A DNA stretch of 32,000 bases from Candidatus Velamenicoccus archaeovorus (GCF_004102945.1 NZ_CP019384.1:570001-602000); one strand, 5' to 3'; counted from the stretch's first letter, positions 28,691 through 32,000 are shown. Notes: generated from the sequence alone by a model not told the origin. Made by a program: numbers and translations.

Positions 28691-29683
28691 ATGTCAAAAA
28701 AAGAAAACATTAAACTTGTTTCTCCTGAGGACATAGATTTTAATCCTAATAATCCTCGAGGACAAGATTACGAGGACAAGGATTCCATTGCTTTGGAGGA
28801 ATCTATCCGGCAGTATGGAGTAATGGTTCCCTTGATTGTTTATGAGAATGACAAGAAGGGTAGACCCTACATTTTACTGGATGGCGAAAGAAGACTTAGG
28901 GCCGCTCAAAAAGTGAAAACAGGTTCGGTGCCAATCCATATTCTCGACATTAAAAGAGATAAAAATGAGGGGTTGAAGCGGATGTTTCAAATCCATATGT
29001 TAAGGGAGCAATGGGAACCAATGGCCCAGGCTCAAGCTTTGAAGTTTTATGTTGATTTGATAAAAAAGGACAATAAGTCAATCGCTGATATGGAAGTCAC
29101 CAATAAAATATCAGAGATAACTAAAATGGATAAAAAAACAGTCGAGGATCGCCTTCGCTTATTGAGATTCGACAAAGATACTCAAGAAAAAGTTCTTGAA
29201 AATAAAATCGATGATAGCTATTTGGTTCAAATAGAGCAGAATTTTGTGGAACAGTTAGACAAAAATGTATCTCGCAACTTTTTTAGAGACTATTCAAAAG
29301 ATGAAATAAGAAAGAAATTAATAGAAAAAGCAGAAAAAGGTCTTCTCGGGACAACACGTGCCTTTTTTTGGGTGCCGGATGCGATTATGACTTGCAAGAA
29401 ATTAAATAAAATTGAGATATTCGCATCCTCAGCAAAAAAACTGATAGAAGACATTGAATATACGGTAGAGGATTTGAAGAATGATTTAGCAAAAAAAGTG
29501 CAGATTCAAACCTTAACAGGAAAAGTAACAAGCCGCGGGTTAATCAAGAACATTAATAAATTGTGTTCACAGCTTTCCGAATTCGATATGTCTAAGGAAT
29601 CTAATAAGAAAAAAAAAGATGGTATAGTTTTGTTTTTAAAAAAATTAAGAGATGCAATAGACCAGATAATTAAAAACGGATAA
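28691..29683 (+). CDS. ParB/Srx N-terminal-domain protein (ParB-like nuclease/CTPase fold) with a long helical C-terminal region
   Basis: RBS acggaggt. The N-terminus has I.FNPNNPR.., GV.VPLIV and the box ILLDGERRLRAAQ (D64-A72, 28880-28906), diagnostic of the ParB N domain. A possible HTH lies around ISEITKMDKKTVEDRLRLLRF. Confidence 0.8.
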   Translation: MSKKENIKLVSPEDIDFNPNNPRGQDYEDKDSIALEESIRQYGVMVPLIVYENDKKGRPYILLDGERRLRAAQKVKTGSVPIHILDIKRDKNEGLKRMFQIHMLREQWEPMAQAQALKFYVDLIKKDNKSIADMEVTNKISEITKMDKKTVEDRLRLLRFDKDTQEKVLENKIDDSYLVQIEQNFVEQLDKNVSRNFFRDYSKDEIRKKLIEKAEKGLLGTTRAFFWVPDAIMTCKKLNKIEIFASSAKKLIEDIEYTVEDLKNDLAKKVQIQTLTGKVTSRGLIKNINKLCSQLSEFDMSKESNKKKKDGIVLFLKKLRDAIDQIIKNG

Positions 29684-29693
29684 CTCAAACACT

Positions 29694-31211
29694 ATGTCAA
29701 AAAGAGAAGCCTTTCTGGAAAAGATAGATAAGGTATTAATACAGAAATACCATTGGAAGATAGTTTCGGCAGATGAAAGAAAACGTTTGCTGAAAGATAT
29801 TAAGTGGTATCCAGACCTTTTTTATCGAAACGATTCGGCCCTGATAGCAATAGACATAAATCTTAGCAACGATTTCCCCATTAAAGGCGCTGGCGAGATA
29901 CTTAAAGCGACAAAAAAGATAAAGAATTTCCAATTTTACTATTATGTCCCGAATGATTATGGTTACGACCAAATTTTTTCGCACTGTTTTAGTCGTGGAT
30001 TCGGGATAATGCGATTGGACAACTTATCTTTTTCTGTCCTTCTTGATCCTAAAGCAAAAACATTAAATAGAAATAAATATAAGCAGTTAGTCGATAAAAA
30101 AATATCTCAAGAATATGGGCACATCCCGAATAAACTATTAACCTATATCAGTCGCCTTACTCATATTTCTTATAGAAATATTTTAAAAGAGTTTGTTTCG
30201 AAATATTCTGCTCTTCCAAAGCGCAAGGACATCTCGGAAGAAGAGTATAATTTGGTTGACTCTACAATAAAGAAAATATTCGATAATAAGAAATTTCATT
30301 ATTCTTCTGAGCAGTATTTAAGATTGAAATATTACGAGCCTTTGCTTAAGGGAACCAGAGAGCACTACTTGCATTCTTTTCAGGTTATGTTATTAGGGTG
30401 TGTAATAATCGATGAATATTATGTTGAATTTGAAAAATATTATAAGAATATATTTCCTAGAGAAAAAAATTTCTCAATCGAATATGTGTGGCTAATAACC
30501 TCTATATTTCATGATATTGGTTATCCTTCGCAAAAAGCAAGTAGTTTAATCGGTGATCTTTATGGGTATAGCGAAGACATAGAAGTGGCGGGATTGGACA
30601 GAATTGCTGATAAAAGTGATTATCTTCAGGCTGCAATACAACTCCAATCTTTTCTTAGACACTGTTGTTGTAAACGTATCCTTAATAATTGGACTCCTGA
30701 AATATTAGAAGATGCTGATTCAACAATTAAAGACATTTTAAGGGAACATCTGATAAAACATAAATCTCATGGGGTAACGTCTTGTTTTCAGTTTCTTACG
30801 AGAGTTTTGCGTGAATCAAAGGCTGTAAATAATCGCCCAACAAGGCCATTAATTGTTACTCATGTTATCCCTGCAGTGGCTTCCATAGCATTACATGATA
30901 ATAGAATTTGGAAAGAGTTCAGAAAACAAAAGATTTTCCCGATAAATATCAATAGGTTCCCTTTTGCTGTGCTTCTGATTTTTCTAGATAGTCTTCATGA
31001 TTGGAAAAGAAATAATTCTAATGAAGAAACACCTGAGTTTGCCATCTTTGAAGGTTTCGAATTTGGCACAGATTATATTGAAGTAAAGGTCAAATGGGCA
31101 AATCCAGAGCAGTTGGCGAGAAAATTACCTGAATATAAAGATGTAATGAATACCATAAAATTTAATGGAATTAAACTAAAATTACCAGATATTTTATTAA
31201 ATAAAAAATGA
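29694..31211 (+). CDS. HD-domain phosphohydrolase-like protein with an unassigned ~200-aa N-terminal region
   Basis: H227 (LHSFQV, 30372-74) and H273-D274 (IFHDIGYP, 30510-15) have the H...HD spacing. Later HG, IALHD and LDSLHD lie where the distal His/Asp ligands are expected. It starts 11 nt after the ParB-like gene. Confidence 0.7.
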   Translation: MSKREAFLEKIDKVLIQKYHWKIVSADERKRLLKDIKWYPDLFYRNDSALIAIDINLSNDFPIKGAGEILKATKKIKNFQFYYYVPNDYGYDQIFSHCFSRGFGIMRLDNLSFSVLLDPKAKTLNRNKYKQLVDKKISQEYGHIPNKLLTYISRLTHISYRNILKEFVSKYSALPKRKDISEEEYNLVDSTIKKIFDNKKFHYSSEQYLRLKYYEPLLKGTREHYLHSFQVMLLGCVIIDEYYVEFEKYYKNIFPREKNFSIEYVWLITSIFHDIGYPSQKASSLIGDLYGYSEDIEVAGLDRIADKSDYLQAAIQLQSFLRHCCCKRILNNWTPEILEDADSTIKDILREHLIKHKSHGVTSCFQFLTRVLRESKAVNNRPTRPLIVTHVIPAVASIALHDNRIWKEFRKQKIFPININRFPFAVLLIFLDSLHDWKRNNSNEETPEFAIFEGFEFGTDYIEVKVKWANPEQLARKLPEYKDVMNTIKFNGIKLKLPDILLNKK

Positions 31212-32000
31212 GTAAAATTTTATTAGTCGAACCGAATTTTCCCATTCCAGCTAAAAGTAAAAATCATAGGGACTTCTTGCCTGTGGGATTGTTGAAGCTT
31301 GCAAGCTTTCATAGGAATAAAGGAGATGAGATAAAATTAATCAGAGGCAACCAGTATTTTGATGATTTTTACCCCAGTCAAATCAAGATAACATCGCTTT
31401 TTACTTATTGGTCTAATTATGTATGGGATAGCGTTAAGTTTTACAAGGAGGCTTATCCTAAAGCAAAGATAGTCGTTGGGGGGATTTATGCTTCGTTAAT
31501 GCCTGAGCATTGCAAGCAGTCAGGATGCGATGAGGTTTTTGTTGGTGTTGATGAAAGGGTTGAGAAATTCAAGCCTGCTTACGATTTAGTTGATGTTGAC
31601 TATCAGATTGCACATACGAGCAGAGGATGTCTCAGAAAATGCAAGTTTTGCGGAACATGGAAGATTGAGCCGGAATTTATTTCCAAAAAAAGCATAAAAG
31701 ATGAAATTTGTAGTAATAGGATAATCTTTTATGATAATAACCTATTGGCTAATCCGCATATAAAAGAAATACTTGAAGAGCTAAAAAATGCAAAACACAA
31801 TGGAAGGGTTGTTTACTCTGAAAGCCAGTGTGGGATCGACGGGCGGTTGCTTACTTCCGAGGTAGCTAAATTACTCAAACAAGCGCGTTTTCTGAACCCT
31901 CGCATAGCTTGGGACCATGGGTATAGCCAAAAAAAGATGATAAAGAAACAGATAGATATGCTTGTAGCTGCCGGCTACCCAAGAAAAGAAATTTACATTT
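31208..32000 (+). CDS. B12-binding-domain radical SAM protein (5' partial, continues beyond the window)
   Basis: I translated this by hand; it is not in the track because no stop is reached. The sequence runs MSKILLVEPNFP..FLPVGLLKLASF..IKITSLFTYW..IVVGGIYASL (Rossmann-like B12-binding N-domain), then HTSRGCLRKCKFCGTW, which is the CxxxCxxC radical SAM cluster motif at about 31628-31651. ATGA overlap with the HD gene stop. Confidence 0.8.
   Translation, partial: MSKILLVEPNFPIPAKSKNHRDFLPVGLLKLASFHRNKGDEIKLIRGNQYFDDFYPSQIKITSLFTYWSNYVWDSVKFYKEAYPKAKIVVGGIYASLMPEHCKQSGCDEVFVGVDERVEKFKPAYDLVDVDYQIAHTSRGCLRKCKFCGTWKIEPEFISKKSIKDEICSNRIIFYDNNLLANPHIKEILEELKNAKHNGRVVYSESQCGIDGRLLTSEVAKLLKQARFLNPRIAWDHGYSQKKMIKKQIDMLVAAGYPRKEIYI

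Follow-up and report, generated by a model that had tools for sequence, protein, structure and literature searches.

The 32,000-nucleotide stretch of the Candidatus Velamenicoccus archaeovorus genome that we analysed (the window) carries three tightly packed genes, whose products are a ParB_N protein, an HD-like protein of 505 aa and a radical-SAM (rSAM) enzyme with a B12-binding-like domain (Table 1). Together with a small HTH regulator gene, which is broken in the window copy, these genes may form a mobile defence cassette resembling a restriction-modification (R-M) system, a reading for which we consider the chances to be balanced. Support for such an R-M-like class is indirect; it comes from the displacement of the rSAM enzyme by DNA methylases, from endonuclease-fusion partners and from asymmetric conservation, and neither biochemical nor phage data exist for any member.

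Table 1. Positions of the cassette genes and of the elements upstream of them, counted from the first nucleotide of the window.
Feature	Position	Strand	Remarks
Conserved cassette leader	27041..27159	+	77.5% identical to L001 5076-5195
Extended -10-like element TGTGTTATAAT	27136-27146	+	inside leader 27041..27159
PDC-S54 homologue, single-gene phage-defence candidate, 417 aa	27214..28467	+	PADLOC PDLC05036
HTH_17/excisionase-type small regulator gene	28477..28650	+	in-frame TAA at 28591-28593, sequence read directly
Gene 1, ParB_N protein, 330 aa	28691..29683	+	Pfam ParB_N
Gene 2, HD-like protein, 505 aa	29694..31211	+	motif pattern and weak HD matches in relatives
Gene 3, rSAM enzyme with N-terminal B12-binding-like domain	31208..32000	+	264 of 368 codons, cut by window end

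The cassette and its genomic surroundings

An earlier note, made from the sequence alone, had described the three genes as closely packed, and re-derivation of the coordinates upheld this: exactly 10 nt separate gene 1 from gene 2, and an ATGA overlap joins gene 2 to gene 3. GGAGG is found 6 nt 5' of the ATG of gene 1. Complete ParB-HD-rSAM triads were present in 40 of the 78 metagenomic loci retrieved via the HD-like protein alone, at identities down to 25%; most of the HD-centred loci without a complete triad are cut by contig ends, and further triads were recovered via routes other than the HD-like protein. The tight packing is not due to chance, since 26 of these 40 independent triads have a 4-nt overlap between the HD and rSAM genes (translational coupling) and the ParB-HD gap remains narrow across them (-20 to +14 nt). 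The architecture of the triad and its conservation as a unit elsewhere, which the note had proposed as a check, are thus shown.

The note had also inferred that the operon continues past the window edge, which is true for gene 3 itself only. Over its 264 residues inside the window, gene 3 is identical to the N-terminal part of P0017 (368 aa), whose record reads 'radical SAM domain protein [Candidatus Velamenicoccus archaeovorus]'. Relatives show the rSAM gene as the end of the operon: no conserved gene was found downstream of it, and what lies 3' varies by locus (type I R-M, archease/RtcB or unknown genes). No RiPP or cofactor cluster, which the note had considered as a possible refutation, was revealed downstream.

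The cassette region is a low-G+C island, with a G+C content of 34.5% for positions 28691-32000 versus 53.3% for the core (positions 1-19000). The foreign context claimed by the note therefore held as a contrast, its figures (about 32% against about 57%) being rough, and so did the reported neighbours, a nuclease-motif protein (the PDC-S54 homologue) and an excisionase remnant (the HTH_17/excisionase-type reading frame). Defence-type neighbours comprise the PDC-S54 homologue in the window and, in relatives, AbiEii, HEPN/NT and type I R-M genes, PIN-RHH, and pP_pnuc_1 with type I R-M and HNH genes.

The L001 counterpart of the cassette leader lies directly upstream of the HTH gene in this closest relative. 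Within the leader, the motif TGTGTTATAAT has its single occurrence in the whole window; a consensus promoter scan did not call it, a -35 match being absent, and its role as a promoter is merely inferred. The PDC-S54 homologue, which matches its PADLOC model with E=1.4e-125 over model positions 1-407 of 410, sits between the leader and the HTH remnant. It is missing from the same position in L001-L004 and is probably a module separate from the cassette. The in-frame stop codon cuts the HTH_17-type reading frame to 38 aa, and a tblastn search with the 56-aa HTH protein of L001 gave 67% identity with a stop where the relative has Q; the window copy is in all likelihood a pseudogene. Intact copies were found 5' of ParB-HD-rSAM, GHKL-F10-rSAM and GHKL-F2-rSAM operons, and a partial match upstream of the ParB-REase-rSAM operon of L018. 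Situated before several architectures in the manner of an R-M controller protein, the HTH gene product is a possible controller.

PADLOC v2, whose models include viperin, DISARM, Dnd, Dpd and PDC candidates, gave no match for the HD-like protein or the rSAM enzyme, nor for homologues from L001, L008 and L009, and the sole match of gene 1 (0.018) was at chance level. NCBIfam returned only generic, sub-threshold matches, and no description of a ParB-HD-rSAM cassette was found in the full-text literature searched. The cassette thus most likely represents a system that has not been named, and the note's claim that no described system has this combination held.

Predicted properties of the three proteins

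Gene 1 meets membership of the ParB/Srx superfamily (Pfam ParB_N, E=3.6e-12, 46.6 bits, cut-off 26.3), with a weak additional match to HTH_ParB (1.3e-3). The note had pointed to an intact DGERRLRAA box in this protein and to a CLRKCKFC motif in the rSAM enzyme, and both held. Gene 1 carries the motifs NPRG, DGERRLRAA (residues 64-72, containing the GxxRxxA nucleotide-binding box) and HMLREQW; the nucleotide-pocket motifs NPR and GERR(xRA), and also HMLRxxW, are kept in 46 partners with a median identity of 27%. The protein stays below the NCBIfam cut-offs of TIGR00180 parB_part (53.1 vs 58.45) and Noc (54.6 vs 315), and no ParA-type ATPase was detected among the Pfam-annotated ParB neighbours in the inspected relatives; the upstream reading frames of the window were not all profiled. 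On these grounds, gene 1 does not qualify as a partition ParB (ParABS). No NCBIfam match to the DndB, DpdB or DGQHR (DUF262) models was obtained at E<=0.1. Gene 1 is nearer to partition-type ParB/Noc than to DndB/DpdB, which refines the analogy with the latter two drawn by the note. We predict an NTP-gated DNA-binding or clamp subunit, the NTP-dependent clamping being inferred. A DGQHR protein is present in a distant Rhizobium operon.

One alternative is a function in mobile-element maintenance, partition or anti-restriction, with ParB partitioning or silencing and the rSAM enzyme hypermodifying the DNA of the element to evade host restriction. The low G+C content of the island, the occurrence of distant rSAM relatives in a few phages and rhizobial plasmids, and the affinity of gene 1 to partition-type ParB/Noc rather than DndB speak for it. 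Against it stand the lack of ParA-type ATPases among the Pfam-annotated ParB neighbours of the inspected relatives, the count of two loci among 2.9 million viral contigs versus 107 in cellular genomes, and the chromosomal position of the loci amid defence genes. We regard this explanation as very unlikely.

For the 505-aa protein encoded by gene 2, no Pfam, NCBIfam or PADLOC model matches, and no solved structure (PDB) was found by sequence and none that is convincing by fold. Its AF2 model (pLDDT 76, pTM 0.77) predicts an alpha/beta domain with a restriction-endonuclease-like fold without a conserved catalytic triad (residues 1-120), an all-helical HD-like domain (residues ~145-440) and a small C-terminal domain (residues 450-505). 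Foldseek matches were weak and comprised AF2093 (E=0.12), NucS, Hjc and EcoT38I, and also PPX/GppA C-terminal domains. H227, H273, D274, H359, H401 and D432 are invariant across 115 distant relatives, and H401 directly precedes D402. Pfam HD was the sole recurrent family among relatives, matched weakly in 8 of 70 (best E=0.006), with one Cas3_HD match besides. The note had called this a 505-aa HD phosphohydrolase-like protein; the length held, and the HD label rests on the motif pattern and on these weak recurrent matches, so that the assignment is weak at the profile level. In the N-domain of relatives, Pfam returned one weak match each to AHJR-like, PDDEXK_3 and Hjc. Among 92 relatives, only 36% retain D41 and 51% retain D/E54, and no lysine is conserved. 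A catalytic PD-(D/E)xK nuclease was accordingly rejected for this domain, as only the fold is suggested and the D...(D/E)xK triad is not conserved; the endonuclease-fold N-domain is likely non-catalytic. Gene 2 is a predicted effector, probably a nuclease or phosphohydrolase, with the nuclease activity of its HD domain being inferred. Where the note had suggested a signal-degrading enzyme, a restriction effector now appears more likely.

Gene 3 meets membership of the Radical SAM superfamily through its CxxxCxxC motif and its Foldseek matches. CLRKCKFC occupies residues 141-148, and C141, C145 and C148 are invariant. Pfam matched B12-binding (4.5e-6; 26.9 bits vs cut-off 32.1) and Radical_SAM (5.6e-6); for the latter, close members score 27-29 bits vs a cut-off of 29.5, and the L008 homologue 35 bits. 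The AF2 model (pLDDT 83.5) matched TsrM and AprD4 (both E=5e-9) and MtaB (2.5e-8) with TM values of 0.57-0.63, as well as the corrinoid-binding domains 1y80, 4jgi and 8jbs. The class-B (B12-binding) assignment made by the note thus held in part: for the B12 domain only the fold is confirmed, and cobalamin binding and methyl-transfer chemistry are unproven. AprD4 contains this domain but makes no use of cobalamin. Because neither AprD4 nor MtaB couples the fold to cobalamin-dependent methylation, neither cofactor nor chemistry of gene 3 can be inferred from it. The rSAM enzyme is very basic (pI 9.6), with a C-terminal tail of pI 11.4, a charge in keeping with nucleic-acid binding. We predict a DNA-modifying, self-marking enzyme; DNA as its substrate is inferred.

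Exchange of partners around the rSAM enzyme

Eleven ParB-HD loci possess a DNA methyltransferase instead of the rSAM enzyme. Nine carry an N6_N4_Mtase (Pfam 1.4e-18) in the rSAM slot, including two in which ParB is lost at the contig end, and the other two have a Dam-like MethyltransfD12 (1.5e-19) after ParB-HD; in a crude tree, one methylase pair is nested within the rSAM-linked clade. This replacement is shown, and it provides strong indirect support for the rSAM enzyme acting in DNA modification, as the note had guessed.

At least eight operon types share this rSAM enzyme, the triad being one of them, which widens the view of the earlier note. We found 2262 rSAM homologues in many phyla, and 107 rSAM loci in representative genomes from many bacterial and archaeal phyla; the rSAM gene is the last of the operon in most classified loci. 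Its partners are components of restriction type (nucleases, helicases and ATPases) and include ParB_N or GHKL fused to one shared DpnII/MboI-like endonuclease domain, GHKL with F2 or F10 proteins, an SNF2 helicase with ParB-like proteins, a PLD-helicase with an SMC-like ATPase, PLD with a DrmE-like protein (DISARM-like), and HsdM-HsdS with a HerA-like protein. At most of these rSAM loci, no methylase was detected within 8 kb using four methylase/specificity-subunit profiles only, a screen that would miss C5 methylases. Five partner classes occur within one rSAM cluster at >=65% identity, demonstrating shuffling. L180 (ParB-HD) and L009 (GHKL-F2) share ~77% identity that begins at the very start of the rSAM gene and extends through hsdMSR, YgjP and RadC, and they are unrelated upstream of the rSAM start, which likely reflects a cassette swap at this position. 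Median identities in the same loci were 52% for rSAM, 33% for ParB and 26.5% for HD; the rSAM enzyme diverges far more slowly than ParB and HD, as modification genes usually do relative to restriction genes.

These data bear on three further explanations. In a viperin-like nucleotide immunity, the rSAM enzyme would turn a free nucleotide (e.g., CTP) into a chain-terminating or toxic analogue without any DNA mark, the HD protein would process nucleotides, and ParB would be a CTP-binding sensor or regulator. The conserved ParB_N nucleotide-pocket motifs (NPR, GERRxRA) favour this, as does the established synthesis of antiviral nucleotides by viperins, with Ophion (rSAM+PHP+PRTase) validated as well. 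The HD superfamily includes (d)NTP hydrolases, which is likewise in its favour. However, the fold of gene 3 is that of the B12-domain class (TsrM, AprD4, MtaB) and not of viperin, for which PADLOC gave no match; the rSAM enzyme is replaced by DNA methyltransferases; and it is accompanied by endonuclease fusions, helicases and PLD nucleases rather than by nucleotide enzymes. Moreover, ParB_N and the GHKL ATPase interchange N-terminally on a shared endonuclease domain, which argues against a CTP-specific logic. We consider this possibility unlikely.

The same grade applies to the rSAM enzyme as a toxic effector that, triggered by upstream sensor and motor proteins, would for instance damage DNA or RNA through radical hydrogen abstraction and cause abortive infection without self-marking. 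It is the one constant gene amid many variable 'sensor-like' partners, and it is strongly basic. Yet the partner modules already hold clear effectors (DpnII/MboI-like endonuclease, PLD, HD), the slot is also taken by methyltransferases, which are non-effectors, and defence effectors usually vary, whereas the rSAM enzyme is the most conserved part.

The cassette might also be an accessory of an adjacent type I R-M system (as its regulator, as a reserve nuclease or as protection against anti-restriction) rather than an independent system. For this speak the position of hsdM 46-155 nt after the rSAM gene in L001, L009, L014, L020 and L180, and, in L024 and L044, the inclusion of HsdM-HsdS in the tightly packed operon itself; on the L049 and L068 contigs, only hsdS was detected. 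In most rSAM loci and most ParB-HD-rSAM triads, however, type I genes are absent within 6-8 kb, and type I loci are generally frequent neighbours in defence islands, so that we hold this explanation to be very improbable.

Proposed mechanism and known systems

In the R-M-like reading that we prefer, the rSAM enzyme would be the 'modification' arm, covalently marking the DNA of its own cell by means of its [4Fe-4S] cluster and SAM; cobalamin, possibly held in the N-terminal Rossmann-like domain, may be used for marking. The likeliest mark would be a radical C-methylation or a related C-H functionalisation of a base, and this chemistry is inferred. ParB and the HD-like protein would constitute the 'restriction' arm: the ParB_N protein would engage DNA as a nucleotide-gated DNA-binding or clamp subunit, and the HD-like protein, with its non-catalytic endonuclease-fold N-domain and its putative metal-dependent HD-type phosphohydrolase domain, would attack unmarked DNA. 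Activities and anti-phage or anti-plasmid function are inferred, and we would not put the odds of this division of labour either above or below those of its being wrong. Against it, the rSAM gene stands alongside HsdM-HsdS in several operons, where a second modification enzyme would be redundant, and the enzyme is very conserved without an obvious variable target-recognition region, which is unusual for a sequence-specific modification enzyme. The weak HD assignment, the unproven cobalamin binding and the narrow methylase screen count against it as well. To our knowledge, there is also no precedent for a radical-SAM enzyme that does the self-marking in a restriction system.

A bolder reading, which we advance tentatively and would not quite expect to hold, is that one highly conserved B12-domain rSAM family installs an as yet unknown covalent mark on genomic DNA and serves at least eight restriction architectures as their common self-marking arm (among them ParB-HD, GHKL-based, ParB/GHKL-endonuclease fusions, SNF2-based, SMC-based, DISARM-like and type-I/HerA-like). 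The more than 2000 homologues occur in anaerobes among both bacteria and archaea and range from Omnitrophota and Patescibacteria to DPANN and Asgard archaea. If true, this would constitute a new class of epigenetic DNA modification and an R-M-like immunity built on radical chemistry.

The cassette resembles Dnd (DndABCDE and DndFGH), in which the ParB-superfamily DndB lies beside an iron-sulfur DNA-marking enzyme with coupled restriction modules, in its lateral spread in islands, and in that the SMC-like ATPase and a small protein of one rSAM architecture are reminiscent of DndD-DndE. It differs in lacking DndA, C, D and E homologues, in a ParB that is not of the DndB/DGQHR type, and in an enzyme that is no PP-loop ATPase but a genuine radical-SAM protein carrying a B12-like domain. 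In the 7-deazaguanine system Dpd (DpdA/B/C and DpdD-K), the ParB-like NTPase DpdB similarly assists a DNA-modifying enzyme and restriction is supplied by helicase and nuclease genes, whereas the cassette has neither a TGT-family DpdA nor DpdC, and its modification candidate is itself an rSAM enzyme. Prokaryotic viperins and Ophion likewise place a radical-SAM enzyme in an anti-phage setting, but differ in rSAM class, in partners (PHP and PRTase) and in inferred substrate (free nucleotides), without any profile match. The class B rSAM methyltransferases (TsrM; related AprD4 and MtaB) share the N-terminal Rossmann-like B12-type domain, the rSAM barrel and the CxxxCxxC motif. In contrast to them, gene 3 is much shorter (368 aa) and has no detectable sequence similarity to any solved structure, and the known enzymes act on small molecules, peptides and tRNA, not DNA.

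Type II R-M systems with a controller (C) protein likewise combine a nuclease, a modification enzyme and a small upstream HTH gene, with a conserved modification gene and a fast-evolving restriction gene, and bona fide N6/N4 and Dam-like methylases hold the rSAM position in the 11 sister loci. The restriction arm of the cassette is, however, a ParB_N and HD-like pair and not a PD-(D/E)xK enzyme, and its modification arm would be an rSAM enzyme. DISARM genes are absent from the window cassette, and the likeness is limited to sister architectures, in which rSAM relatives close operons with PLD (DrmC-like) and a DrmE_C-like protein; no methylase was detected in these operons, and the rSAM gene therefore occupies the place of DrmM. 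The ParB and the effector of the window are separate proteins, the latter being HD-like and not HNH or PD-(D/E)xK, unlike GmrSD ParB-nuclease fusions and MORC/GHKL enzymes (BbrUII/HgiDII family, MzaB). These couple a ParB or GHKL NTPase to a nuclease, and the two-gene relatives of the cassette consist of exactly such fusions followed by the rSAM gene.

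A conserved ParB-HD-rSAM gene triad

The three genes under study encode a ParB_N protein, an HD-like protein, and a radical-SAM enzyme (rSAM) with a B12-type N-domain. An earlier note, made from the sequence alone, had described them as a tightly packed operon, with a ParB-fold first product and an rSAM carrying the motif CLRKCKFC, all within an AT-rich island. The packing, including both gene junctions, held in the ORF table and on direct reading, and all three genes run in the same direction. The identities of the first and third products were supported by Pfam and by the motif, although the B12-binding-like and Radical_SAM matches of the latter were just below thresholds. 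The low-G+C contrast held as well (34.5% across the triad versus 53.3% for the first 19 kb of the window). Over the portion inside the window, the gene 3 product shows no difference from the first residues of P0017, the full rSAM protein of Candidatus Velamenicoccus archaeovorus; we therefore assign the gene 3 product a full length of 368 aa. A second stretch of low G+C content (0.39-0.46) is present well upstream of the cassette, at 19000-23000. No tRNA genes or Rfam families were found in the window, and promoter and terminator scans gave no convincing call close to the operon.

Features of the cassette and of its leader region (positions within the window)
Feature	Position	Strand	Remarks
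Conserved leader, ~120 nt	27041-27159	+	Homologous to 5076-5195 of L001 (closest related locus), directly upstream of the HTH gene there
PDC-S54 homologue, full-length	27214..28467	+	PADLOC E=1.4e-125
HTH_17-type small ORF	28477..28650	+	In-frame TAA at 28591-28593
Gene 1, ParB_N protein, 330 aa	28691..29683	+	ORF table, direct reading
Gene 2, HD-like protein, 505 aa	29694..31211	+	10-nt gap after gene 1
Gene 3, rSAM	from 31208	+	ATGA overlap with gene 2; runs past window end

Among 5.8 billion proteins, just 11 cluster representatives are close to the 505-aa protein. An exhaustive profile search enlarged this family to 790 representatives at E<=1e-3 (102 at E<=1e-30), and a word-indexed homology search with a family alignment (A6) revealed no further members. 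In all close-homologue contexts, the gene order is ParB_N, a ~506-aa protein, and rSAM. A metagenome scan seeded with the HD-like family alone yielded 80 loci, mostly at 24-34% identity, of which 78 were placeable; complete ParB-HD-rSAM triads were found in 40 of these 78, and contig ends truncate most of the others. Among the 40 triads, the gap between the ParB and HD genes ranges from -20 to +14 nt, and the HD and rSAM genes overlap by 4 nt in 26. The finding is real and conserved; the earlier note had named non-conservation of the triad as grounds for refutation, and the triad is kept as a unit.

The flanks vary. Downstream of the rSAM gene, the relatives possess type I restriction-modification (R-M) genes (L001-4, L180), unknown genes (L005-7), or archease/RtcB (L178); upstream of the triad, AbiEii with HEPN/NT, DUF1016-SNase, or TPR genes are present. 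Since the triad is constant and its flanks differ between relatives, the operon probably terminates at the rSAM gene, and the unit that moves is likely HTH-ParB-HD-rSAM. Both conclusions are inferred from the relatives, and the former not from this genome's own downstream sequence; exact-sequence queries with the 505-aa protein and with P0017 returned no record.

The earlier note had also allowed that the downstream genes might reveal a RiPP or cofactor biosynthetic cluster. This candidate was rejected, as the surroundings of the triad lack a precursor or tailoring context. A partition locus was rejected because ParA is absent among the Pfam-annotated neighbours in the relatives inspected. In two loci (L110, L111), the ParB-HD pair is followed by an opposite-strand GHKL ATPase gene and a longer rSAM gene (535 aa), an arrangement resembling a hybrid of two architectures. 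A distant HD-like branch (~575 aa; L159, L161, L163, L165, L169, and L173) lacks ParB, and its neighbours (rSAM-SPASM, squalene-cyclase-like, asparagine-synthase, and glycosyltransferase genes) form a biosynthetic-looking context.

The conserved leader contains TGTGTTATAAT at 27136-27146. Because this leader matches the stretch abutting the HTH gene in L001, we consider the homologue of PDC-S54, a PADLOC single-gene phage-defence candidate, to lie within the cassette leader; it is placed between the leader and the HTH remnant, a spot at which L001 has no gene. In L180 (region 3010-4056), a pP_pnuc_1 nuclease gene takes a similar place, with the HTH gene on one side and ParB on the other. Since these two genes reside in or beside the leader region, this region might be an insertion hot spot for single defence-type genes. 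In the HTH_17-type ORF of the window, TAA replaces a glutamine of the intact 56-aa version; as judged from this in-frame stop codon, the ORF has likely become a pseudogene.

Predicted properties of the three proteins

The gene 1 product matches Pfam ParB_N above threshold (E=3.6e-12), and its ParB HTH is weak. Its NCBIfam matches (Noc, ParB, RepB) were all under cut-offs, and neither DndB nor DGQHR was among these results. The NPR box, DGERRlrA, and the (F)hIHmlRxxW motif are kept across 46 ParB partners (median identity 27%), and from this conservation we infer that the ParB nucleotide pocket is probably intact.

No match to the gene 2 product was found in Pfam, NCBIfam, or PADLOC. Its AlphaFold model (pLDDT 76, pTM 0.77) begins with an alpha/beta N-domain (1-120), continues into a helical core (~145-440), and closes with a small C-domain. 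Foldseek searches with the full-length model returned nothing at E<0.1; the best, and weak, matches were endonuclease-fold proteins (AF2093, NucS, Hjc, EcoT38I) for the N-domain, and the HD-like C-domains of PPX/GppA for the core. PDB sequence searches with two family profiles (A1, A2) gave chance-level matches only. Invariant in 115 distant relatives are H227, G235, W266, H273, D274, H359, H401, L428, D432, and R439; H224 is near-invariant in the same set, as is D402 in a 70-member subset (A3), and the ligand pattern reads H..HD..H..HD..D. In a Pfam scan of 70 relatives at a lax threshold, HD was the sole recurrent family (8 of 70, and one Cas3_HD match), and PD-(D/E)xK families appeared as three unrelated singleton matches. 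In the N-domain, the acidic residues that might serve catalysis are poorly kept and no lysine is conserved; we therefore read this domain as lacking catalytic activity and place catalysis in the HD-like core, an assignment that is inferred from conservation and fold only.

No match for gene 3 to a solved structure was detectable in PDB sequence searches with the rSAM profile (chance matches only). The gene 3 model (pLDDT 83.5) matches TsrM and AprD4 (E=5e-9, TM 0.57-0.63) and MtaB (E=2.5e-8), and the N-domain alone matches corrinoid-binding domains. The core rSAM family has four further invariant cysteines outside the cluster motif (C107, C208, C284, and C294) and a near-invariant one, C102; none of these is retained in the divergent homologue of L008. 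The protein is strongly basic, with a pI of 9.6 overall and 11.4 for its C-terminal tail.

One rSAM family in many operons

Database searches recovered 2262 rSAM homologues at E<=1e-3. The best 120 of these are 64-99% identical and stem from Omnitrophota, Nanoarchaeota, Atribacterota, Elusimicrobiota, Zixibacteria, Bacteroidota, Patescibacteria, and others. Representative genomes contained 107 rSAM loci, of which 80 were retrieved (L014-L093); the hosts span a very wide range of bacteria and archaea, most of them anaerobic. The rSAM gene is the last of a co-directional operon in most classifiable loci (exceptions: L008, L033, L035, L062). Neighbourhood clustering and Pfam scans delineated at least eight operon classes.

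Genes located upstream of the rSAM gene in the operon classes
Class	Upstream genes
a	ParB (330 aa), HD-like (505 aa)
b	GHKL ATPase, F2
c	GHKL ATPase, F10 (homologous to F2)
d	Single fusion protein, in which ParB_N or GHKL is joined to a shared DpnII/MboI-like endonuclease domain
e	ParB-like, small protein, SNF2 helicase, ParB-like
f	PLD/ResIII helicase, SMC-like ATPase, 141-aa protein
g	645-aa protein, PLD, DrmE_C-like protein
h	HsdM, HsdS, unknown protein, HerA-like protein

Sequences of the rSAM are intermixed across these classes: one cluster at >=65% identity spans five of them, and one at >=50% spans all eight. L180 (ParB-HD; 6664-16104) and L009 (GHKL-F2; 8004-15757) share ~77% identity over a stretch that opens with the first bases of the rSAM gene and takes in hsdMSR, YgjP, and RadC. 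Upstream of this stretch they are unrelated, so that the two genes there have been exchanged precisely. Comparisons by hhalign of the HD-like N- and C-domains with the middle proteins F2 and F10 and with the DpnII-like domain revealed no relationship; F2 and F10 were the sole related pair (98% probability). ParB_N and GHKL NTPases can replace each other ahead of one and the same endonuclease domain and rSAM, a clean natural experiment in modularity that bears on the use of nucleotide-gated DNA clamps in immunity. Intact copies of the HTH gene precede operons in three classes (a, b, and c), and a partial copy is found ahead of a class d operon, that of L018, so this gene may encode a controller-type regulator.

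Proposed role of the rSAM and relation to known systems

The strongest clue to the role of the rSAM, albeit an indirect one, is its displacement by methylases. An N6_N4 DNA methylase occupies the rSAM position in 9 of the 78 ParB-HD loci (a contig end removes ParB in two) and a Dam-like methylase does so in 2 of 78; a crude UPGMA tree built from the HD-like proteins places one methylase-linked pair inside the rSAM-linked clade. The partner modules of the rSAM are restriction parts (nucleases, helicases, NTPases), and most partner loci are without a methylase detectable by the four profiles used. The rSAM also diverges far more slowly than its partners within the same loci (52% identity, versus 33% for ParB and 26.5% for the HD-like protein). 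On these grounds, we propose that the rSAM is a self-marking modification enzyme. It would mark self DNA in R-M-like systems whose restriction arm would be ParB and HD or, in the sister classes, GHKL and F2 and the like. In the absence of experimental data, we regard this R-M-like reading of the cassette, the best explanation available, as about as likely to be right as wrong.

Two weak points speak against self-marking: four operons pair the rSAM with type I methylase and/or specificity genes, and no variable region that could confer specificity is evident in the rSAM. The cassette might instead be a type I accessory, the rSAM might follow a viperin-like nucleotide mechanism or itself be the effector, or the cassette might serve a mobile-element function. 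Each of these alternatives is less well supported than the R-M-like reading, and none is excluded.

The cassette resembles Dnd and Dpd (a ParB-like protein, a DNA-marking enzyme, and restriction modules) and classical R-M operons with a controller protein in its logic; the likeness to DISARM and to ParB- or GHKL-nuclease restriction enzymes concerns the sister rSAM architectures. Yet, it fails membership in all of these on their defining components. The earlier claim that no described system combines ParB-like, HD, and B12-rSAM proteins held within PADLOC v2.0, which gave no match for the three triad proteins or their homologues, and within the literature searched, which contained no description of the triad or the rSAM family. 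Most subscription journals lie outside that literature, so this absence is not proof. Ophion (rSAM, PHP, PRTase), the only rSAM defence system found there, has different partners, and the papers on Dnd, BREX, and DISARM deal with other genes. As far as could be tested, the system is therefore likely undescribed.

Under the R-M-like reading, the family would be new in its size as well as in the chemistry that it implies. Were the rSAM to mark DNA, radical C-H chemistry would join methylation, phosphorothioation, and 7-deazaguanines among natural DNA self-marks, and current defence-finding tools would be missing a large family of immune systems that anaerobes and uncultured lineages possess. Such a mark would change the reading of long-read base-modification signals from environmental samples, affect the transformability of anaerobes, and add to the enzyme toolbox for DNA labelling.

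Among 2.9 million viral contigs, only 2 relatives of the rSAM were recovered. Marinitoga camini virus 1 (L176) carries a gene, UF08_54, whose product is 35% identical to the rSAM and which adjoins HerA-like and NurA-like genes. A distant rSAM operon is present in a cultured aerobe, Rhizobium leguminosarum WSM1325, on plasmid pR132505 (L177; NC_012854.1, ~13.4-21.6 kb), in the order hypothetical protein, 139-aa protein, DEAD/DEAH helicase, ParB_N, DGQHR (DndB-like) protein, radical SAM (543 aa, 29% identical to P0017), and ATP-binding protein; it is a possible experimental entry point.
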